The notes under the pieces are model-generated. The model worked only from the letters and a program-made list of their open reading frames with translations. It was not told where the DNA came from and ran no database searches. This document shows positions 13,512 through 51,666 of a stretch of DNA of 64,000 nucleotides, in pieces (position 1 is the stretch's first letter; the number at the start of each line of letters is the position of its first letter). The translations under genes were made by a program, and so were the position numbers. The DNA comes from Labilithrix sp. (GTDB lineage: Bacteria > Myxococcota_A > Polyangia > Polyangiales > Polyangiaceae): assembly GCA_044227045.1 (NCBI GenBank), contig JBGAFW010000002.1, positions 67,457 through 131,456 of the forward strand, given 5' to 3'.

Positions 13512-14576
13512 GTGCATCTCGTCGTCCCTCCCGGAGGCTCGTTTCGTGAGGCGCGCCGCATCGAGCTCGACGCGCGCGTGCTCACGATCGGACGAGCAGA
13601 AGCGTGCGATGTCCGGATTGACGTTCCGGGCGTCGACGACGAGCACGCCAAGATCAGCGAGGTCGCGCTGATCGCCGTCGGAAACGACTGCGCGGTGGGC
13701 GACGTCCCGCTCGACGCGGGCTGCCGCCGCCTCGTGATGCCGGGCGACGAGATCCAGATCGGCAGCGTGGTCCTCGGGCTCGACGGCACCGATCCGAGCA
13801 CCGCGCACGACAAGCCACGCGTTCCTGGACCGCGCATTCGCGTCGTCGAAGGTCAGAACTTCGGCGATGAGCTCGTGCTCGAGGCGGAGAACCGCGAGTA
13901 CGTCATCGGACGAAGCCCGAAGGCGGACCTGCGGCTCGAAGATCGCGAGGTCTCCCGCGAGCACATCAAGATCGTCCGGCGCGGGTTCTCCGTCTTTCTG
14001 TTCGACGCGGCGTCCACGCGCGGATCGTGGATTGGACGATCGGCGGTCTACCAAGGGTCACGAGTCGAGTGGCAGCGACCACGCATGCTGAAGCTCGGCG
14101 CGACGGTCCTCTCCCTCGAGCTGCCCGTCGAGGCAAGGCAACGTGCAGCGCCCGTGCAGGTCAGCGCGCCGATGACGCCGCCTCCCCGCGTGCGATCCGA
14201 GCGGCCCGCGATGCCGATCCCCGAGCCGACGCCACAAGGCGCGAGCCCGATCGTCGCCTACCACTACGAGGCCGCGCCGCAGCCGCCGACCCCCTCGCCG
14301 AACATGCCGTCGAGCCCGCCGATCGGAATGCCAGCGCCAGGCGTCGCGCCACCTGCCGCCGCGATGCCGCCGATGCCGTTGCCGATGATGCCCGGGCAGC
14401 CCGAGGTCGCGATTCATCCCTCGGTCCCGCCCGCGCAGATGCCGAACCGCGGATCGCGTACCGCGTGGAAGAAACAAGGCGCGACGATTGGTCGCGGCTC
14501 GGGGATCTTGCTACTCGCGCTCGCCGGCATCGCGATCCTCGGCGTCCTGTTCGTCGTCTTTTCGCTGATGGAGTGA
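13512..14576 (+). CDS. Membrane-anchored protein with two FHA domains
   Basis: Two FHA cores (LTIGRAEACDVRI...DDEHAKI; YVIGRSPKADLRLEDREVSREHIKI). A Pro-rich linker and a C-terminal TM segment (ILLLALAGIAILGVLFVVF). Confidence 0.8.
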   Translation: MHLVVPPGGSFREARRIELDARVLTIGRAEACDVRIDVPGVDDEHAKISEVALIAVGNDCAVGDVPLDAGCRRLVMPGDEIQIGSVVLGLDGTDPSTAHDKPRVPGPRIRVVEGQNFGDELVLEAENREYVIGRSPKADLRLEDREVSREHIKIVRRGFSVFLFDAASTRGSWIGRSAVYQGSRVEWQRPRMLKLGATVLSLELPVEARQRAAPVQVSAPMTPPPRVRSERPAMPIPEPTPQGASPIVAYHYEAAPQPPTPSPNMPSSPPIGMPAPGVAPPAAAMPPMPLPMMPGQPEVAIHPSVPPAQMPNRGSRTAWKKQGATIGRGSGILLLALAGIAILGVLFVVFSLME

Positions 14577-15106: not shown

Positions 15107-16312
15107 TTAGGTCGTCGGCAGCACGAGGCTCGGGTGCTGGTTGGCGCCGAACGGGCTGGTCGTCGGGCGCGTGACCGTGCCGAGGAGCGACCAGAACCCG
15201 GGGATGCCGGGCGTGTTCGCCGACAGAGACACGGCGCCCTGCGCGGTCTTGCCGGTCGTACCCTGCTTGACGTACTTGCCGATGAGCGTCGCCGACAGGT
15301 TCGGCTGGTGGTCCGAGCCCGGAAGGCTGCGCGCGAAGTCGCCGATGATCGCCACCACGACGTTGCGGGTCGTATCTTGGACCATGCGCGTGAGGAACGT
15401 GTTCAGCGGCGCGAGGATCGACTGCGTCATCTTGTTTCGGACGGTCGTTCCTTGCGTGTCGCCGTGCGTGTCCCAGCCCGCGTCGAACGCCGCGACGACG
15501 TTCGTGCCGGCGCGAACCATGAGCTCGGCGGCCGCCATCTTCGACTTGAAGTCCCGCACCGCGGTCGCGTTGCCGAGCGCGTAGGCCGTCTTCAGATCGT
15601 CGAGGGAGATTTGCTTCACCGGTTGCTTGAGCGTGTCGACCGCGGCGGTGTAGCCGTTCGCGAGCGAGTCGAGCGACTCCGGGCTGCCCGCGAGCACGTT
15701 CGCGCTCATCGTCTGCGCGCCCGTGACGCCCGCCAGGGCGATCGTGCGGTCCGGAACGCGCGGGTTGGCGACGCCGCCGCCGAGCGCGTCGATCGTCTTC
15801 TGCATGTCGGTGATCGACTGGAAGGAGACGCCCCCGACGGCAGCCTTCGGCGCTTCGGCGATCAGGTTGCCGCCGACGACGGCGGCCTTGATCGACGCCG
15901 TGCCGCCGATCGCGTTCGCGAGCGCCAGGCCGGCGTTGACGTTGTTCATCGTCCAGAGCGACTGGCGCGCTCCAGGGTGGTTCGAGATGCCGTGACGGAC
16001 GCCCACCGTCGCCATGTGGTTCTTGGCGAACGCGCTCATCGAATTCGCGAACGTGTTGTCGACCGCGAGGCCGTTGCCGAGGACGGTGTGGTTGCCGGCG
16101 GTCACGCCGAACTTGCCGACGAGGGAGTCTGCGCTGCCGAAGAGCGCGTTGTACCCACCGACGAGGTGAAGAATGACGAGCGACGTCGGCTCGGCGGTCG
16201 CGGCCTTTGCCTCGCCGATCCAGCCGGCGCCCGGGATGCGCGATCCCACCGCGGCGCCGACGCCGATGCCGAGGCTCTTGAGAAACCCACGTCGTGAAAA
16301 TCCTGTGCTCAT
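15107..16312 (-). CDS. DUF1501-family protein with a twin-arginine (Tat) signal
   Basis: MSTGFSRRGFLKSLGIGVG is a Tat motif. The DUF1501 signature is present (FDAGWDTHGD). The start is an internal ATG of ORF 15107..16570. Confidence 0.8.
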   Translation of the reverse strand: MSTGFSRRGFLKSLGIGVGAAVGSRIPGAGWIGEAKAATAEPTSLVILHLVGGYNALFGSADSLVGKFGVTAGNHTVLGNGLAVDNTFANSMSAFAKNHMATVGVRHGISNHPGARQSLWTMNNVNAGLALANAIGGTASIKAAVVGGNLIAEAPKAAVGGVSFQSITDMQKTIDALGGGVANPRVPDRTIALAGVTGAQTMSANVLAGSPESLDSLANGYTAAVDTLKQPVKQISLDDLKTAYALGNATAVRDFKSKMAAAELMVRAGTNVVAAFDAGWDTHGDTQGTTVRNKMTQSILAPLNTFLTRMVQDTTRNVVVAIIGDFARSLPGSDHQPNLSATLIGKYVKQGTTGKTAQGAVSLSANTPGIPGFWSLLGTVTRPTTSPFGANQHPSLVLPTT

Positions 16313-16332
16313 GGCTTGGCTTCTCTCTGTTC

Positions 16333-17010
16333 TCAGTAGGTCAGGAATCCGGCGGAGGAGAGGACCGACGCGCATGCGTAGGCCCACTTGCGTCGGGGCT
16401 GCGGCTCGGTCGCCGTGCCCGTCGTCGCGACGTCGACGCACGCTTGCACTTCTTGCGGCGCGGGCGTCTTGCTCCAGAACTTGCGCGCCATCGCGGCGCA
16501 TTGGGTCGCGGCGGACGCCGCGTCGGGCGCGGCGGCAAACTCCGGCGCCGTCTGCGTGTACGTGAGGCACCCGTCGAACGCGATGCCGTACGCCGTTTGG
16601 AGCGCGACGGCGTTTGCCTGCGGCTCGTCGTACCAGCGCGCGGGCACCTGGCCGAACGTCGGACCCGCGCCTTGGAGCGACGCGGGCGCCGCGCCGAGCA
16701 CGCGTGCATACTCGGTCTGCAGCGCCGAGAAGGGCTTCACGCGACCGCGATCGACGCCGAGCTTCGCGACGACGCGCGTGCTGTGGAGCGGGATGTTGTC
16801 GAAGCCTGCGTACTCCTTCGAGGTGCAGAGCGCCGGGTCGGTCGGATCGGTCGGCGCGTTGGGATCGCCTTGCGCGTTCGGATCGTTCGGATCGTTGCCG
16901 GGATTGTTGCGGCGACCGGTGAGGTTTTCGGGATCGTCACCGCATGCCGCGATGAGAAGAGCGCCGAGGCCGAGATAGAACAGGATGGTGAGCTTGTTCG
17001 TGTTCATCAT
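16333..17010 (-). CDS. Hypothetical lipoprotein (Asn/Pro/Asp-rich linker)
   Basis: MMNTNKLTILFYLGLGALLIAAC gives a lipobox. Lies between the CxxCH-protein gene and the DUF1501 gene on the same strand. Confidence 0.6.
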   Translation of the reverse strand: MMNTNKLTILFYLGLGALLIAACGDDPENLTGRRNNPGNDPNDPNAQGDPNAPTDPTDPALCTSKEYAGFDNIPLHSTRVVAKLGVDRGRVKPFSALQTEYARVLGAAPASLQGAGPTFGQVPARWYDEPQANAVALQTAYGIAFDGCLTYTQTAPEFAAAPDAASAATQCAAMARKFWSKTPAPQEVQACVDVATTGTATEPQPRRKWAYACASVLSSAGFLTY

Positions 17011-17042
17011 GTTGGCTGTCTTTCGTTCGTTCGCGCTCGTGC

Positions 17043-18011
17043 CTACTGGCAGAACGAAGCGTCCTTCGCGATGGCGGATAGGGCAGCCTGAATGGTGCCG
17101 GTCTGGGTGAACGCATCGACGCACTTGTCGAACACTTGTCCTTCGCAGGTGCTCTCCGGCCGTCCGTAGAGGAACTCGAAGCCGAGCCGGCACGCGTTGA
17201 AGCGGAAGTTCTCCGACGCGACGAGCGCTTCGACGAGGTCCTTGTCGTTCGCGATTGTCTTGCCGCTGAGGATCGTCTGCGGACCTTCGGTCGGCGGGAG
17301 GTAGGTGATGTTGTCACCGGTGCCCTTGCGCTTCGAGAGGACCTTCGACACGAGGTCGAGCGCGAACCAGCCGTTGTAGTGGCAGCCCGCGCACGCCGGC
17401 GCCTTGCGGCCGTCGGCGCTGAGGTCGACGCCTTCGACGTTCGTCGTCGCGGTGAGCTTGAGCCCCGTCGTGTTCTGGAGCATGCGGTAGCCCGCCGAGA
17501 TGCGGTAACCGTCCTTCTCGTTGCCCGCGTACCGCTTCATCCACGCGGCGCTGCGGAAGTAGCCGAGGCCGTTCGGGTCGGGCGTGACCGCGTCGGCGAC
17601 GCTGTACTGGCCGACGAACATGTCCTTCCAGGGCTTCGTGCCGTCCGTCAGGATGAACTTCGCGAGCGTGTACGACGCGTCGTCGGCGATCTCTTCGCCG
17701 GGCTCGGGGTTGAACTGCGAGTTCACGAAGCGCGCGAAGCGATCGATGAACTGCGGATCCTTCAGGATCGTGTCGACCGCGTCTTGTGGGTTCGCCGACG
17801 CCATGAGCTCGGGCGTCGCGCTCTTGCCGAGCAACGCCACGGACACGCGCGTCGCGCAACGCTCACGCTTCTCGGTCGCTTCGGCTTCGCCGTCCGCGCG
17901 TGCGTGCTGGGGCTTCGCCAAACCGATCGAGAGCGCCAGCGCGCCGACTGCCAGCGGGGCAACGGCCTTTGCGACTCTCTTCAGGGATGTCGTCCATGTC
18001 CGCATGATCAT
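17043..18011 (-). CDS. Secreted protein with a single CxxCH (c-type haem-binding) motif
   Basis: GGAG, then ATG, then MIMRTWTTSLKRVAKAVAPLAVGALALSIGLA (signal). The motif is KAPACAGCHYNGWF. First gene of the three-gene operon that ends with DUF1501. Confidence 0.55.
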   Translation of the reverse strand: MIMRTWTTSLKRVAKAVAPLAVGALALSIGLAKPQHARADGEAEATEKRERCATRVSVALLGKSATPELMASANPQDAVDTILKDPQFIDRFARFVNSQFNPEPGEEIADDASYTLAKFILTDGTKPWKDMFVGQYSVADAVTPDPNGLGYFRSAAWMKRYAGNEKDGYRISAGYRMLQNTTGLKLTATTNVEGVDLSADGRKAPACAGCHYNGWFALDLVSKVLSKRKGTGDNITYLPPTEGPQTILSGKTIANDKDLVEALVASENFRFNACRLGFEFLYGRPESTCEGQVFDKCVDAFTQTGTIQAALSAIAKDASFCQ

Positions 18012-18415
18012 CGAGCTCCTGTCTTTCCGTCCGTCTGCCGCATTGCAGCGCGCGTTCCTGAAATCGATCGCGGCCGAATCGGCAATTCCTTCGTGATTTC
18101 GCCGGTCATTCCGCGATCCAGAGACCTCGTTTCGGAACGAGACGTTCGTTGTCGCGAACGTTTCGTTCGCGACGCCATGCCCATCCGGAACGTTCTGGGC
18201 GTCTTCTCCGACCGCGCCGTGCATCACGCGCGAACGAAGTGCAGGAAGATGGCCGCGCGCGCATCGAGGGATCCTGCACGCAACGTTGCGCAACTCGCGC
18301 ACGGCGCTGCGCGTACTGATTCAGGCCACGCCGCGCGTCCGTGCGAGCGCTGTGGATCGCCCGCGAGCGTTGCTCACGCGCGTCGTCTCATGCACGTGCG
18401 TGCATCGAAGACAGG

Positions 18416-19867
18416 TCAGCGGTGGCTACGTGCCTTGAGCTTCTGAAAGTAACGTCGGCCGATGCCGGACGCGGCGGCCGCCTTCGCGACGTCGCCGCCG
18501 TGGCGTTGAAGGAGGCGCGCGACGAAGCGAGCCTCGAACTCCTCGAGGATGCGGTCGCGCGCTTGCGGGTACGGCACGTCCATGTCGACGAAGCGATCGA
18601 TCGCGTCGGGCAGCGGTGGAGGCTGCGAGGGTGAGCCGCCGAGGCCTGGCGGCGCGAACGGCGTGCTCGGCGTGCCCGACGGATAGCCCATGCTCATCGC
18701 CGGCGGGGGAACGCTCGCCGGCGCGGAGAACGAGGGCTGCAACGACGCCAGCTCGCCGAGCGCGAGCTGTCGCGCGATCGTGTTGCGAAGCTCGCGCACG
18801 TTGCCGGGCCACGCGAAGTCTTCCCATTTCTGGAGGAGCTCGCGCGGGATCGCGTTTGGGTCGCCGCCCATCTCGCGCCAGAAGTGCATCGCGAGCGCGG
18901 TGATGTCGCCCTTGCGTTGGCGGAGCGGCGGGAGCTCCACGCGCGCGACCGCGAGGCGGTGAAACAGGTCGTCACGGAAGCGACCGACCTGCACCTCGCG
19001 ATCGAGATCCCGTCGCGTCGCGGCGAGGACGCGCACGTCGACCCGCATCCACTTGTCGCCGCCGATGCGGCGTACCTCGAAGCGCTCGATCGCGCGAAGG
19101 AGCTTCGGCTGGAGCGAGAGATCGAGATCGCCGATCTCGTCGATCAGGAGCGTGCCGCCTTGCGCCTGCTCGAACACACCTCGGCGTGCCTGCATCGCGC
19201 CAGTGAAGGCGCCGCGCTCGTGCCCGAAGAGCTCCGCCTCGACGAGGCTCGGCGGCACCGCGGTGCAGTCGAACACGACGAACGGACCTTGCGCGCGCGG
19301 TCCCATCTCGTGGAGCGACTCGGCGAGCGCTTCCTTGCCGGTGCCCGTCTCGCCTTCGATGACGACCGGCACGGTGGTCTGCGCGAGGCGCTCGAGCAGC
19401 GGGTAGAGGCGGCGCATCTCACGGCTCGCGCCGACGACGCGACCGAACGACACGGCGGGAGAGAGCGGCGGCTCGGCCGCTTCGTAGGCGTCGTCGACGT
19501 CGACGCGAAACATCGTCGACCCGATCCGGAGAAACTCACCGCCTTGAAGATCGGCGAGCACCACCTTGACGCGATCGACCCAGGTCCCGTTCGTCGAGCC
19601 GAGATCGCTCACGCGGAGCGCGTCGCCGATCACCTCGAGGGCGACGTGGCGGCGTGAGACCTCGGGGTCGCTCAGCCGGATCTCGCACGCGGGGCTCGTC
19701 CCGACGAGCGCGCGGACGGCGAGGGAAGAGTCGAGTCGGTACGATCGCCCGCGCTCGGGCCCTTCGGTGACGACGAGCGTGAACGCGGTGGGTCCCCCAG
19801 ATCCAGCCTCTTCCGCGTCGCGTCGCTGGACGACGGTCGCGAGGAGATCGCGGTCGCTGTCCCTCAT
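18416..19867 (-). CDS. Sigma-54-dependent transcriptional activator with an N-terminal FHA domain (enhancer-binding protein)
   Basis: FHA (LVGTSPACEIRLSDPEVSRRHVAL). AAA+ sigma54 domain (VVIEGETGTGKEALAESLHEMGPR, ELFGHERGAFTGA, GAFT loop, GNVRELRN). C-terminal HTH. The start is an internal ATG (MRDSDRDL). Confidence 0.85.
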   Translation of the reverse strand: MRDSDRDLLATVVQRRDAEEAGSGGPTAFTLVVTEGPERGRSYRLDSSLAVRALVGTSPACEIRLSDPEVSRRHVALEVIGDALRVSDLGSTNGTWVDRVKVVLADLQGGEFLRIGSTMFRVDVDDAYEAAEPPLSPAVSFGRVVGASREMRRLYPLLERLAQTTVPVVIEGETGTGKEALAESLHEMGPRAQGPFVVFDCTAVPPSLVEAELFGHERGAFTGAMQARRGVFEQAQGGTLLIDEIGDLDLSLQPKLLRAIERFEVRRIGGDKWMRVDVRVLAATRRDLDREVQVGRFRDDLFHRLAVARVELPPLRQRKGDITALAMHFWREMGGDPNAIPRELLQKWEDFAWPGNVRELRNTIARQLALGELASLQPSFSAPASVPPPAMSMGYPSGTPSTPFAPPGLGGSPSQPPPLPDAIDRFVDMDVPYPQARDRILEEFEARFVARLLQRHGGDVAKAAAASGIGRRYFQKLKARSHR

Positions 19868-19919
19868 GCGTCCAGCATAGCCGGTTTCGTGCGTCTCGAT
19901 CGCCGCGAGTGGCGCCGTG

Positions 19920-21566
19920 TTAATCGAAGCGGCGAAATCCAGAGCTCGAGCTGGTCTGCGGCGCGGTTCGTTGCCCCTTGCTACCGTCGTTGCTGCGCGG
20001 TGGTCGAACGGCGGGACGACCGACGTGCACGACGACGGGCGTGAGGCCCACGAGCACCTTCTGATCGGCGTCGGGCACCACCTGCTGCGTCGCCGTGACG
20101 TAGCCTTGGCGGCGAAGCTCGAGGACGAACGGCTCCTGTCCGCGCAAGACGAGCAGATCGATGGGCGTTTCGCCGCGTTCCTGGTTGTTGACGAGCACGC
20201 GCGCGCCCGGCGGCTTCGTCTCGACGTGAACGAACACCTCGTCTGCGCCGGCGTCGGGGCGTGCGCCCGGGGTAGCGAGTGACGAGGGCGCGGGCAGCGC
20301 CGGCAGAGGACCATCCGCCGTCGCCTCCCTCGAAGACCGCGCTTGGCGTAGCGCCATCCCGACGCCGAAGACGATCACCGCGAGGACTCCGAGCGACGCG
20401 ATCGCCACGACGCGCCAGCGTCGCGCGTGGACGACGGCGAGACGTGGATCGGTCTGCACGATCGTCGCCGCCTCCGGCGCGACCGGGACGTCGACGTTCT
20501 CGTCGGTCTCACCCGCAGGCACGTGCGAGAGCCCTTCACCGGCGCTGACCTTACGAAGGAGGTCCTCCTTCTCGGTGATCCGATCCGGAAAGAGCCTTCG
20601 CATGCGCTCGGCGAGCGCCTCGACCGGTGAGGTGAGCTCGCGGGTCACCTCGAGCAGCTCGAGACGCATCTCGGCGGCGGTCGCATGGCGATCGTCGGGG
20701 CTCTTCGCGAGCGCCTTCATCACGATCGCTTCGAGCTTCGCGGGGTACTTCGCCGCCAGCTCGCGGGAGGAGATCGCGCGTGAAGGAGGGACGATCGGCT
20801 CGCGGCACACCGCCTCGATCGACTTCGCCGCGCTCGCGCGCTTGAAGAGGCGCCGTCCGGTCGACAGCTCGTAGAGCACGATCCCGAGCGAGAACAGATC
20901 GCTCCTTCGATCGAGCGGCTTGCCGAGGCCTTGCTCGGGCGACATGTACTCGAACTTGCCTTTGACCTCGCCGGGCTCGGTGCGCGCGTCGCGTCGATCC
21001 ACGAGGGCGACGCCGAAGTCGACGAGCTTCACGTGACCGTCGTAGGCGACGAGGAGGTTCTGCGGAGACACGTCGCGATGGACGAGGTTCTGCGGTTGCC
21101 CATCGTCATCGGTGAGCTCGTGCGCGGCGTGGAGGCCCGCGCATGCCTCGGCGATGATGTGCGCGGCGAGCCGTGGGTCGAGCGGATCGCCGGAGGCCGT
21201 GCTGCGCTTGAGAAGGCTCGAGGCGTTCTCTCCCGCGACGTACTCCATCACGAGGAACGCTTCCTTCGTGTTCGCCTCCGCGTCGACGTGCTCGCCGAGC
21301 TCCTGCACGTGGACGACGTTCGGATGGCGAAGCGACGCGACGATACGTGCCTCGTCGAGGAACATCTTCACGAACGAGGTGTTCGCGGCGTACGACCGGA
21401 GGATGCGCTTGATGACGACCGCGCGCTTGAAGTCCGCCGGCCCCGAGAGCCGAGCGAGGAGGATCTCCGCCATGCCGCCAGCGGCGAGCTGACCGAGCAC
21501 TTCGTAGCGTCCGATCCTCTTTGGCGCTGCCGTCGTCGCGGCTTCTGTCGTCGTGGGGCTCGTCAC
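19920..21566 (-). CDS. Membrane Ser/Thr protein kinase with an extracytoplasmic PEGA domain
   Basis: Hanks kinase motifs (GGMAEILLAR, VVIK, HRDVSPQNLLV, DFGVA, SPEQ). A TM segment (VVAIASLGVLAVIVFGVGMAL). C-terminal PEGA (VETKPPGARVLVNNQERGETP). Confidence 0.85.
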   Translation of the reverse strand: MTSPTTTEAATTAAPKRIGRYEVLGQLAAGGMAEILLARLSGPADFKRAVVIKRILRSYAANTSFVKMFLDEARIVASLRHPNVVHVQELGEHVDAEANTKEAFLVMEYVAGENASSLLKRSTASGDPLDPRLAAHIIAEACAGLHAAHELTDDDGQPQNLVHRDVSPQNLLVAYDGHVKLVDFGVALVDRRDARTEPGEVKGKFEYMSPEQGLGKPLDRRSDLFSLGIVLYELSTGRRLFKRASAAKSIEAVCREPIVPPSRAISSRELAAKYPAKLEAIVMKALAKSPDDRHATAAEMRLELLEVTRELTSPVEALAERMRRLFPDRITEKEDLLRKVSAGEGLSHVPAGETDENVDVPVAPEAATIVQTDPRLAVVHARRWRVVAIASLGVLAVIVFGVGMALRQARSSREATADGPLPALPAPSSLATPGARPDAGADEVFVHVETKPPGARVLVNNQERGETPIDLLVLRGQEPFVLELRRQGYVTATQQVVPDADQKVLVGLTPVVVHVGRPAVRPPRSNDGSKGQRTAPQTSSSSGFRRFD

Positions 21567-21593: not shown

Positions 21594-22415
21594 TCACTCG
21601 CAGCCCGGCATACCCTGACCTTTGCCGATCGCGCACGGCAAGCAGATCTCGGTGATCCCGCATCCGCCGCGCATGACCTGCTTGGTGCCGCGGAGCATCG
21701 AGGCGAAGCAGACGTCGAGGCAAACGCCCGGGACGCCGAGGACGTCGCACTTGACCGGCGCGCCGTCGACCATCGCCGCCGGGGCGCACACCTTCTGGCT
21801 CGGGCATGCGTCGCGCTGCATGTTTTCGCGCTGATCTTCGGGGATCGCGTCGAGCTTCGAGCAGACGCCGGCGCCGTGGCAGCACGACTCGGCGCTCGAC
21901 CCGTCGACTCCGCCGACGCAGTCCTTCTCGTGCACGCCGGTCTCGTCGCAGACGTGCGTGTCGGTGCCGTCGAGCGGGTTGATGCAGGGCGCGCAGCGCT
22001 CGTTTTCGTCGCAGACGTCCTTCTGGAGCTCGTTCTCGTGCGCCTTGATGTCCTTCAGGAGGAGGCTGACGCATGCGCCCGGCTTCTGCTCCATGAAGAA
22101 GGTGCACGCCTTCAGCTTCGTGCCGTTCGCGCTGAGCACCTTGTCCGGGACGCAGACCTCATCGCCTTCGCACGCCGGGAGCTGGGAGGCCGCGATCGGG
22201 ACCTTGGCGTTGTTGTAGCAATGCCCTTTGCCGTCGCCGCATGCCTTGAGCGATCCGAGGTCAGCCTTCACGTGCGGTGACTCGCACGTGCGCGTCTCCT
22301 TCTTCGCGCGGACCGGGAGCGTGACGGTGGCGTACGTGGTCTCGCCGACCGAGCATGCCACGCCGAGCAAGGAGAGCGCTGCGGTGACGATCAAGAGCTT
22401 CGAGAGGGAGTGCAT
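21594..22415 (-). CDS. Cys-rich secreted protein, paralog A (unknown family, about 16 conserved Cys)
   Basis: Signal peptide (MHSLSKLLIVTAALSLLGVAC). Conserved blocks shared with paralog B: ACGDGKGHC, VCVPD, ANG, CAPCI, GVHEK.C, KC.P.AMV.G.PV.CD, GVC.D.CF..ML, GCG.TE.C.PC. Confidence 0.65.
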   Translation of the reverse strand: MHSLSKLLIVTAALSLLGVACSVGETTYATVTLPVRAKKETRTCESPHVKADLGSLKACGDGKGHCYNNAKVPIAASQLPACEGDEVCVPDKVLSANGTKLKACTFFMEQKPGACVSLLLKDIKAHENELQKDVCDENERCAPCINPLDGTDTHVCDETGVHEKDCVGGVDGSSAESCCHGAGVCSKLDAIPEDQRENMQRDACPSQKVCAPAAMVDGAPVKCDVLGVPGVCLDVCFASMLRGTKQVMRGGCGITEICLPCAIGKGQGMPGCE

Positions 22416-22449
22416 GGTCGTTCTCGCGAGGAGTTCTCGTGAAGGGCGC

Positions 22450-23406
22450 TCAGGGGGTCGCGGCGCAGCCGGGGACGCCCTGATCGGCGACGAGCTTGCA
22501 CGGGATGCAGAGCTCCGTCTCACCGCAGCCTTCGCCGTCGAGGATGCCGATGCCACCCGCGATGCTCAGCATCTTGTTGAAGCATTTGTCCATGCACACG
22601 CCCGCGCCGAGAATGCCCGCGTCGCACGTGACGGGCTTGCCTTCGACCATCGCCTTCGGGACGCACTTGTTCGCGTCCGCGCACGTGTCTTGAACGGCCT
22701 TGTCGCGCTGCGCCTCGGGGACGCCGCTCTCGCTGATGCAGATGCCGTTGCTCTTTCCCTTCGTCGTGCAGCACCCGGGCGCGGCGGTGGCTGCGCCGGT
22801 CGATCCGCCGGCAGGGGCCGCGGCGCACGGCTTCTCGTGGACGCCGATCGGCTGGCAGAACGGCGTCGGCGCGTTGTTGTTCGTCGGATCGATGCAGGGT
22901 GCACAGACTTGTCCGGCGGAGCAGGTGTCTTGCTTGAGGGCGCCGGCCGCGCGCTTCTCGCCTGCGGGCAGGAGGCTCATCGTGACGCATGCGCCCGGTC
23001 CGATGATCGACTTGCAGCTCGTCAGCGGGCTCCCGTTGGCGGCGAGGATCTCGTCGGGGACGCACACCTCGTTGGCGTTCGCGCACGCGACGAGCTGATC
23101 GGCCATCGGCGTCTTCGTCTTGTCGAAGCAGTGACCTTTGCCGTTGCCACACGCCGTGAGCTTGCTCACGTCCGCTTTGACGAAGTCGTTCGTTCCGCAC
23201 GTCGCGCCCGCGCCGCCCGAGGGCGAGGCGGAGGAAGACGAGGGCGACACGCCCGCGGCTCCGGCGTCGGCTGCCGTCTGCTCGCCTTCCTGGGTCGTGA
23301 TGTACGTGGGGCTCGCGAGCGTGCAGGCCTGGGTTCCGATCAGGGCGAACAGAGCGCCACCGAACGCGAGAGTCGCCATCACCCGAGCACTGCTTGTCGT
23401 CGACAT
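22450..23406 (-). CDS. Cys-rich secreted protein, paralog B (tandem duplicate of A)
   Basis: AGAGGA RBS, then ATG. Signal peptide MSTTSSARVMATLAFGGALFALIGTQAC. Colinear with paralog A (same Cys framework). Confidence 0.65.
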   Translation of the reverse strand: MSTTSSARVMATLAFGGALFALIGTQACTLASPTYITTQEGEQTAADAGAAGVSPSSSSASPSGGAGATCGTNDFVKADVSKLTACGNGKGHCFDKTKTPMADQLVACANANEVCVPDEILAANGSPLTSCKSIIGPGACVTMSLLPAGEKRAAGALKQDTCSAGQVCAPCIDPTNNNAPTPFCQPIGVHEKPCAAAPAGGSTGAATAAPGCCTTKGKSNGICISESGVPEAQRDKAVQDTCADANKCVPKAMVEGKPVTCDAGILGAGVCMDKCFNKMLSIAGGIGILDGEGCGETELCIPCKLVADQGVPGCAATP

Positions 23407-51395: not shown

Positions 51396-51455
51396 ATCGG
51401 AGCGACCCGGCCGTTCGGTCCAACCCGTCGGATCCACCTCGCGCGTCCGCCGAGG

Positions 51456-51666
51456 AAGCATGCGACCCCTGAGCGAGTCTTCGAGCGAAGGGGGATCCGT
51501 TTGCGCGGAGCGCAAATCGGTCGCATGCGCGGGGTTTGGGGCGGAGCCCCATGTTGAGCGTGAAGCATGCGACCCCTGAGCGAGTCTTCGAGCGAAGGGG
51601 GATCCGTTTGCGCGGAGCGCAAATCGGTCGCATGCGCGGGGTTTGGGGCAGAGCCCCAACGTGAAG
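51456..51666. repeat. Intergenic hairpin-repeat element, locus 2 (about 2 tandem units of roughly 105 bp)
   Basis: Same family as locus 1. The outer stem is GTCGCATGC/GCATGCGAC here versus GTCGTATGC/GCATACGAC at locus 1, a compensatory change. The GGAG-looped hairpins are conserved. Confidence 0.7.

Follow-up and report, generated by a model that had tools for sequence, protein, structure and literature searches.

We describe a three-gene cluster, g1-g2-g3, in a 64,000-nucleotide (nt) stretch of Labilithrix sp. DNA (GenBank assembly GCA_044227045.1, contig JBGAFW010000002.1; hereafter the window) that encodes an exported protein with a CxxCH haem motif, a lipoprotein and a DUF1501-family protein exported through the twin-arginine translocation (Tat) pathway. 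Judged by its recurrence across genomes, the cluster is a real, conserved module, and what is new here is best described, from profile comparisons, as a split, compact and cross-paired form of the known PSCyt/PSD and DUF1501/DUF1552 systems. With a probability of roughly 0.55, we read the three products as a membrane-tethered complex in which g3 would act as a metal-dependent catalytic subunit, and g1 and g2 would bind the substrate and contribute a covalently attached haem.

Genomes of Planctomycetota and Verrucomicrobiota carry genes of the PSCyt/PSD and DUF1501/DUF1552 families in large numbers, with up to 71 DUF1501 and approximately 50 PSCyt2 genes in a single Verrucomicrobia metagenome-assembled genome (MAG) (He et al. 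2017, PMC5615132). According to the same study, which proposed a role in carbohydrate metabolism, PSCyt2/PSD1 genes adjoin DUF1501 and PSCyt3/PSD4 (group III) genes adjoin DUF1552. Group III proteins follow the domain order PSD3/DUF1587 - PSD5/DUF1595 - PSD4/DUF1592 - PSCyt3/DUF1588 - PSD2/DUF1585, with the DUF1552 gene adjacent (PMC5615132). Electron transport has been proposed for DUF1501/PSCyt modules (Kamneva et al. 2012, PMC3542564), and carbohydrate-binding modules have been reported in PSCyt proteins (PMC5615132, PMC3542564).

Layout and conservation of the module

The cluster comprises three open reading frames (ORFs):

17043-18011, minus strand: g1, an exported haem-motif protein of 322 residues (320 from the ATG at 18005), compact and PSD4-PSCyt3-PSD2-like
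16333-17010, minus strand: g2, a lipoprotein of 225 residues
15107-16312, minus strand: g3, a Tat-exported DUF1501-family protein of 401 residues

All three ORFs were confirmed at these coordinates, in a window with a G+C content of 64-70%, and they are separated by 32 nt (g1/g2) and 20 nt (g2/g3). The preliminary description of this DNA, which had reported a three-gene cluster with gaps of 20-32 nt, thus stands, and the sequence features it had observed in g1, g2 and g3 are correct in every detail. Translation of g1 may start at the ATG at 18011 or at the ATG at 18005. The latter is as good a start as the former or better; it is better spaced from an AGGAG box, and a database protein 99% identical to g1 (P0001) has 320 residues. 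For the other two genes, independent gene calls on a Logan contig encoding an identical g3 protein returned the same lengths of 225 (g2) and 401 (g3) residues.

Homologue searches returned 835 matches for g1, 328 for g2 and 613 for g3; among the matches listed, all g1 and g2 relatives are unnamed or labelled as hypothetical proteins. A scan with one genome per species identified 97 loci, of which 80, from 65 assemblies, were fetched for comparison. The three genes are consecutive and on the same strand in 76 of these 80 loci. In two of the other four g3 lies divergently upstream of g1-g2, and in two the contig ends before g3, in one of these already before g2. Seventy-six loci belong to Myxococcota (Polyangiaceae, Labilithrix, Myxococcaceae, Archangium, Kofleriaceae and Haliangiales) and four to Oligoflexia, among them Oligoflexus tunisiensis strain Shr3, the sole locus record not labelled as a MAG. 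Two or three copies of the triad were found in 14 of the 65 assemblies. The claim that the system is conserved across distant phyla has to be narrowed accordingly: all the triads found belong to Myxococcota or Oligoflexia, and it is only the wider superfamily that reaches Planctomycetota and Verrucomicrobiota.

Searching all flanking ORFs with the A1, A2 and A3 profiles (hmmsearch) matched only triad members, and clustering of neighbour genes revealed no further gene conserved in more than approximately 20% of loci. No promoter- or terminator-like signal above chance was found inside the g1-g2-g3 cluster, which makes it likely that the three genes share a single transcript. In a Labilithrix MAG (L082), where an FHA-domain gene lies downstream of g3 on the opposite strand as it does in the window, the annotations of g1 and g2 have 4 nt in common, and in three further loci (L007, L059, L060) the matches to the two genes adjoin each other or overlap by one base, an arrangement that suggests translational coupling of the two genes.

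Anatomy and kinship of the three proteins

The following elements were delineated within the three proteins:

17895-18011, minus strand: g1 signal peptide (residues 1-39), read from the sequence, with predicted cleavage between ARA and DG
17637-17867, minus strand: g1 region aligned to PSD4/DUF1592 (residues 49-125), from hhalign and sub-threshold Pfam matches
17316-17579, minus strand: g1 region aligned to PSCyt3/DUF1588 by hhalign (residues 145-232), holding the haem motif
17379-17393, minus strand: CAGCH (g1 residues 207-211; Cys207, Cys210, His211), putative covalent haem c attachment site
17052-17267, minus strand: PSD2/DUF1585-like C-terminal domain of g1 (residues 249-320), from sub-threshold Pfam matches and hhalign
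16342-16512, minus strand: PSD5/DUF1595-like segment of g2 (residues 167-223, CAAMARKFWSKTPAPQEVQACVDVA...RRKWAYACASVLSSAGFL), from hhalign
16202-16312, minus strand: g3 Tat signal (residues 1-37), SRRGFLK
15458-15478, minus strand: g3 GWDTHGD motif (residues 279-285), with the further motif GDFARSLPGSDHQPN
15239-15595, minus strand: g3 match to Pfam DUF1501 (PF07394; residues 240-358)

The N-terminus of g1 reads as a basic stretch followed by the hydrophobic segment APLAVGALALSIGLA and by ARA before the Asp at the putative cleavage point; its first 39 residues are weakly conserved among homologues and show a predicted local distance difference test (pLDDT) score below 50 in the predicted structure. 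No Pfam model reached its cutoff on g1 or g2. On the window protein the PSD2 model matched over its entire 74-position profile with E 0.077 and 13.2 bits against a cutoff of 25.8, the PSCyt2/DUF1549 model gave a sub-threshold E of 0.35, and PSCyt3 and PSD4 gave no match. Among 26 close and 32 distant members of the g1 family, PSD2 was matched in 22 and 25, respectively (47 of 58, best E 1e-6), PSCyt2 in 13 of 58 (best E 0.0012) and PSD4 occasionally. The sub-threshold PSCyt2 and PSD4 matches fall in the region of residues 49-125, which carries the motif RCATRLSxALxGxxP...FxxRFARFxN, or in family members. None of the 58 members matched PSD1/DUF1553 or DUF1800, another DUF1501 neighbour. A HMMER profile search with g1 against 1.84 billion representative proteins yielded 178 matches, the best 150 of which form a continuous series from E 2e-133 to 4e-9; five that were inspected were all g1-type. 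No above-cutoff PSD domain was found among the 37 representatives of at least 280 residues from this search that were scanned or aligned, so HMMER alone provides no link between g1 and the PSD families.

Such a link emerges from profile-profile comparison. A canonical group III profile was compiled from 23 sequences, comprising four proteins from the fetched myxobacterial loci, two of which were Pfam-scanned and carry PSD3-PSD5-PSD4-PSCyt3-PSD2, and 19 from a metagenome scan, in which the full-length canonical alignment returned no relatives and its C-terminal part returned 19 loci. With the four canonical sequences only, hhalign gave a weak result for g1 (A4; 58% probability) and nothing for g2 or g3. 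With the 23-sequence profile, the g1 family aligned over 291 columns with a probability of 98.1% and E 8e-14, reversed and unrelated control profiles giving P of 0.04-0.8. In this alignment g1 residues 17-322 correspond to residues 188-562 of the reference canonical protein (L053c), spanning PSD4, PSCyt3 (placed by Pfam at residues 364-470 of L053c) and PSD2. By this measure, g1 is homologous to the C-terminal two-thirds of group III proteins, of which it is a compact and divergent version. The suggestion that g1 is akin to DUF1501-associated haem-motif proteins was therefore borne out in its essence, although the kin are DUF1592/DUF1588/DUF1585 proteins and not DUF1549/DUF1553. Of the models proposed for checking this kinship, DUF1585 and DUF1549 remained below threshold and DUF1588 gave no match on the window protein.

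The single CxxCH of g1, CAGCH, occupies the corresponding position. Its residues Cys207, Cys210 and His211 are invariant in the 26 close and 32 distant representatives, down to 26% identity, as are Cys52, Arg202, Asp219, Cys274, Arg284 and Cys297. A CxxCH is present in 118 of 118 full-length homologues, in 81 of 81 g1 ORFs at genome loci and in 35 of 37 distant representatives (at least 280 residues); the two that lack it align to only part of the g1 profile, and one of these (P0499) is an evidently garbled ORF. Each of the 21 canonical group III sequences that span the region likewise has a CxxCH, which hhalign places in register with that of g1, and Arg202 and Asp219 match the canonical motif T-x-R ... 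CxxCH-x(2,3)-D-P. Conservation of this kind identifies the g1 CxxCH as a feature of the family and not a chance occurrence. The preliminary description had envisaged that the motif could be an isolated coincidence in a protein without homology to DUF1501-associated families; instead, the motif proved invariant and aligned to the PSCyt3 CxxCH, and g1 proved homologous. Like c-type cytochromes, g1 combines a CxxCH with the features of a general secretory (Sec) signal peptide, as read from the sequence.

In g2, the lipobox LIAAC precedes Cys23 (nt 16942-16944), which is invariant in the g2 alignment, and a lipobox-like pattern is found in 107 of 120 homologues. Residues 24-57 form an Asn/Pro/Asp-rich stretch that varies among homologues and is thus taken to be a linker, and residues 58-225 form a conserved helical domain with five conserved cysteines. 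The earlier designation of the middle gene as an Asn/Pro/Asp-rich lipoprotein agrees with these features. Pfam returned no match in 24 g2 members, NCBIfam returned none on the window protein, and no structural match was found. An 80-sequence alignment of the g2 domain was compared with the canonical profile over its first 216 residues; the final 57-residue part of the conserved domain (167-223) aligned to residues 147-203 of L053c (P 1.3e-4, probability 54%; controls P 0.17-0.76), coinciding with the PSD5 match of Pfam on that protein (146-207). Residues 88-105 or so are PSD3-like in appearance, a likeness that is suggestive only.

The C-terminal match of g2 to PSD5, together with the lipoprotein nature of canonical group III proteins, makes the apparent three-part form look like a two-part system with one partner split. 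That g1 and g2 represent one group III-type protein divided in two is moderately supported by these comparisons. The "novel three-part form" of the preliminary description thus holds insofar as the three genes constitute a conserved module; its third part is probably no extra component, the C-terminus of g2 being PSD5-like.

The assignment of g3 as a DUF1501 protein with a Tat signal was upheld by both Pfam (38.7 bits against a cutoff of 27, E 9e-10, profile positions 215-338 of 390) and TIGR01409 (17.8 bits against 16.7), and the SRRGFLK and GWDTHGD motifs are in place. The pattern [ST]RRxF[LI] is found in 111 of 118 g3 homologues, and H107, H112, D281, H283, D285, D325 and H335 are invariant. 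All 26 family members scanned matched DUF1501 (best E 1.8e-12) and none matched DUF1552 (HXXSHH). Compared by hhalign with a DUF1552 profile of 17 sequences, the g3 family is nonetheless collinear with it from the Tat signal to a C-terminal FG motif (P 1.7e-4, controls 0.3-0.4), the GWDTHGD motif aligning with the HXXSHH region. On account of this collinearity, which supports the link moderately, the DUF1501 and DUF1552 partner families look like sisters.

Proposed complex and alternative explanations

The three proteins would most likely be subunits of one extracytoplasmic, membrane-tethered complex. In this model, g2 would retain the lipid anchor, the flexible linker and a PSD5-like N-terminal module, tethering the complex to a membrane, and g1, with its own Sec signal and a PSD4-PSCyt3-PSD2-like body, would acquire a haem c covalently attached to its CxxCH after export. 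The g3 protein would be the counterpart, drawn from the DUF1501 branch and not from DUF1552, of the Tat-exported partner that always accompanies group III-type proteins; it would fold in the cytoplasm, presumably taking up metal there, before being exported, and would be the likely catalytic subunit. g1 and g2 would bind the substrate, an envelope or extracellular polymer and probably a glycan, and the haem would exchange electrons with the g3 active site or assist it. We infer haem attachment, complex formation, catalysis by g3, the nature of the substrate and the chemistry from sequence comparison.

Accessory domains of relatives hint at the binding of large ligands such as polymers or glycans, in agreement with the reported carbohydrate-binding modules of PSCyt proteins. 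This hint derives from a PA14 domain (residues 122-244) that interrupts a variable loop in P0367, a homologue of g1, from CARDB/DUF11 repeats in g2, from the C-terminal lectin-like domain of canonical L053c, and from the choice-of-anchor V MYXO-CTERM proteins that adjoin approximately 12 triads. In one locus (L016:8615-11629), some 750 residues of CARDB/DUF11/Ig-like repeats take the place of the g2 linker; judging by the same extra sequence of approximately 2.2 kb between g1 and g2, four more loci (L051, L058, L069, L080) appear to carry such repeats as well.

Several observations weigh against the proposed complex. The order of g1 and g2 reverses the domain order of group III proteins, implying a rearrangement and not a simple fission. 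The alignments linking g2 to PSD5 and g3 to DUF1552 stand at P of about 1e-4 and approximately 50% hhalign probability, residues 58-166 of g2 match nothing significantly, PSD3 included, and the DUF1501 match spans only the C-terminal third of g3. The predicted fold of g1 resembles no solved cytochrome, and its alignments contain no invariant Met or second His that could serve as distal (sixth) haem ligand, an absence that would fit a haem with five-coordinate or unusual ligation, including one that serves catalysis or ligand binding, but also a g1 devoid of haem. No gene adjoining the triad is conserved widely enough to point to a pathway, and the literature searched contains neither an experimental function nor a demonstrated haem for PSCyt/PSD or DUF1501/DUF1552 proteins.

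Part of this evidence can be accommodated by a model in which the CxxCH holds no haem and its residues form disulfides or a small metal site, with g1 and g2 acting as a non-redox substrate-binding or scaffold unit for a hydrolytic DUF1501 enzyme. We regard this alternative as unlikely, though it deserves consideration. Beyond the lack of a conserved distal Met or His, of a cytochrome-like predicted fold and of a haem shown for any PSCyt3 protein in the literature searched, g1 possesses four more invariant or nearly invariant cysteines (C52, C274, C297, C321), and an Asp conserved eight residues after the His could complete a Cys2-His-Asp metal site. In g1 as in canonical proteins, however, the His directly after the second Cys varies no more than the cysteines do, which is the signature of covalent haem attachment and not of a CxxC disulfide. 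Furthermore, exported proteins seldom contain Cys-based metal sites, and a CxxCH in a Sec-exported protein is accepted by cytochrome c maturation systems.

Somewhat more doubtful is a dedicated periplasmic oxidoreductase with no polymer substrate, in which g3 would harbour a redox centre assembled in the cytoplasm, g1 would be no more than an electron-transfer cytochrome connecting g3 with the respiratory chain, and g2 would be a membrane dock. SorAB, NapAB and FccAB are periplasmic two-subunit oxidoreductases of this kind, pairing a Tat-exported catalytic subunit with a Sec-exported c-type cytochrome, and the encoding of a Tat catalytic subunit and a Sec CxxCH subunit in one operon is their standard layout. 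This scheme is in keeping with the Tat signal of g3 and its cluster of invariant His and Asp residues, and with the electron transport proposed by Kamneva et al. (PMC3542564). A single haem lacking a conserved sixth ligand in a helical protein of 280 residues is nevertheless unlike small electron-shuttle cytochromes, no redox cofactor motif is known for DUF1501, large ligands are suggested by the PA14, CARDB and lectin-like domains of relatives, and the presence of several paralogous copies per genome also speaks against a dedicated enzyme.

Membership of g1 in the DUF1549/DUF1553 family (PSCyt2-PSD1, group II), the classical DUF1501 partner, would explain the identity of its neighbour and the weak PSCyt2 likeness of its N-terminus (E 0.35; 13 of 58 members). 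It is already disfavoured, and in our view improbable, given the absence of PSD1 from all 58 members, the presence of PSD2 in 47 of them and the full-length alignment to PSD4-PSCyt3-PSD2 at E 8e-14; group II was set aside through Pfam scans, the profile-profile comparison having been made with the group III profile only. That g1, g2 and g3 are mere neighbours with no common function, for which the lack of direct evidence of interaction or co-transcription could be invoked, is very improbable and already strongly disfavoured by their shared order and strand in 76 of 80 loci from two phyla, by their short or overlapping junctions and by the lack of internal promoters or terminators above chance.

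If the complex proposed here is real, the small size of the triad (approximately 320, 225 and 400 residues), with its haem-motif body apart from the anchor and a group III-type body paired with a DUF1501-type partner, would make it a compact object on which to analyse haem, solve structures and reconstitute the complex. It would also constitute evidence of kinship between the two partner families, and hence between the two module types, and give access to such modules in Myxococcota and Oligoflexia, beyond the planctomycete and verrucomicrobial phyla of the original description, with Oligoflexus tunisiensis Shr3 as a strain that could open the system to experiment. Should the model be wrong, the triad would still be an ordinary conserved operon. 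A more speculative view, to which we give little weight, takes the triad for the whole PSCyt/PSD and DUF1501/DUF1552 superfamily reduced to a minimum and dissected by nature. A covalently bound, five-coordinate haem of g1 and a metal centre of g3 would then form a composite active site that cleaves polymers of the envelope or of prey by an as yet undescribed oxidative or redox-assisted reaction, and the cross-pairing would reveal one ancient system with interchangeable parts.

Genomic surroundings and comparison with known systems

The following features lie around the module in the window:

18012-18415, minus strand: 404-nt region 5' of g1, the presumed promoter and leader, presumably part of the module
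18128-18198: cluster of inverted repeats based on AACGTT/CGAACG, approximately 120-190 nt 5' of g1
18416-20314, minus strand: protein with FHA, sigma-54 activator and HTH_8 domains, directly upstream of g1 and on the same strand
19920-21566, minus strand: Ser/Thr kinase with a PEGA domain, overlapping the preceding ORF, the starts of both being uncertain
21594-22556, minus strand: Cys-rich ORF of 320 residues with a signal-like N-terminus and no Pfam match
13512-14576, plus strand: FHA/YscD-type protein downstream of g3
51455-51551 and 51562-51658: 97-nt direct repeats, 99% identical, with 107-nt spacing and internal self-complementary stretches

No sigma-70-like promoter was found 5' of g1, and the only sigma-54-like site before the gene (18044-18059) has three mismatches, as expected by chance, for which reason we claim no regulatory link to the upstream FHA/sigma-54 activator. 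The inverted repeats, exemplified by the perfect 10-nt pair GTCGCGAACG / CGTTCGCGAC, could be a regulator-binding site or a leader structure. Rfam returned no match within the 64-kb window.

At other loci, proteins with a GY[TS]GK...CxxCH N-terminus adjoin the triad in approximately 12 of 80 cases (L013:3921-4805, L016:12847-15990, and others in L008, L014, L018, L041, L044, L051, L055, L058, L069 and L080). Two that were scanned are choice-of-anchor V / MXAN_6652-family MYXO-CTERM proteins, and in P0378 a protein of this type is fused upstream of a g1 homologue. In the Oligoflexia loci, g3 is followed by a lipoprotein-like protein of approximately 300 residues with a C-terminal CKACH or CKGCH (L061:10883-11782; L064, L075, L079), on which Pfam and NCBIfam gave no match. 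An unannotated protein of approximately 300 residues lies directly upstream of g1 in 16 loci (L009:6808-7725 and 15 others), and a Beta_propel (PF09826) protein occurs in seven (L009:10747-12960 and six others), its gene directly following g3 in three of them and lying further downstream on the opposite strand in four.

With SorAB, NapAB and FccAB the triad shares an export logic, encoding in one operon a metal- or cofactor-bearing subunit destined for Tat and a CxxCH subunit destined for Sec. It has no sequence or fold relationship to them; g3 lacks molybdopterin, flavin and Fe-S motifs, and g1 is much larger than their cytochromes and lacks a conserved sixth ligand.

The DUF1501 modules of the Planctomycetes-Verrucomicrobia-Chlamydiae (PVC) phyla (PMC3542564) likewise place a Tat DUF1501 gene beside an exported CxxCH protein and occur as multiple paralogous modules per genome. 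Modules combining DUF1501 with PSCyt1, PSCyt2 (DUF1549) and PSD1 (DUF1553) are known from Planctomycetota, Verrucomicrobiota and Lentisphaerota (PMC3542564), whereas the hosts of the triad belong to other phyla. Unlike the partners in those modules, g1 has no PSCyt1 or PSD1 and shows a weak, N-terminal likeness to PSCyt2, and the triad has a separate lipoprotein subunit.

The likeness to group III systems runs through all three genes. The mature part of g1 aligns from end to end with PSD4-PSCyt3-PSD2, and the CxxCH coincides in the two, as do the Arg before it and the Asp after it; the C-terminus of g2 aligns to PSD5, and canonical myxobacterial proteins are lipoproteins too (ALACDG, LTACDG); and a Tat-type partner gene follows, its product collinear with DUF1552. 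The triad departs from group III in dividing the protein between two genes in reversed order, with g1 lacking PSD3 and PSD5 and the PSD5-like segment residing in the separate downstream g2, in totalling approximately 550 residues for g1 and g2 against 706-716 in canonical myxobacterial proteins, and in having a partner that scores as DUF1501 and not as DUF1552. In three Myxococcaceae/Myxococcales MAGs the triad is followed, after approximately 0.5 kb, by a canonical group III and DUF1552 pair, verified by Pfam in L053 (10219-13676) and identified by similarity in L062 and L065. Since canonical pairs thus adjoin triads, the two systems are, on the evidence of these loci, coexisting forms, neither replacing the other.

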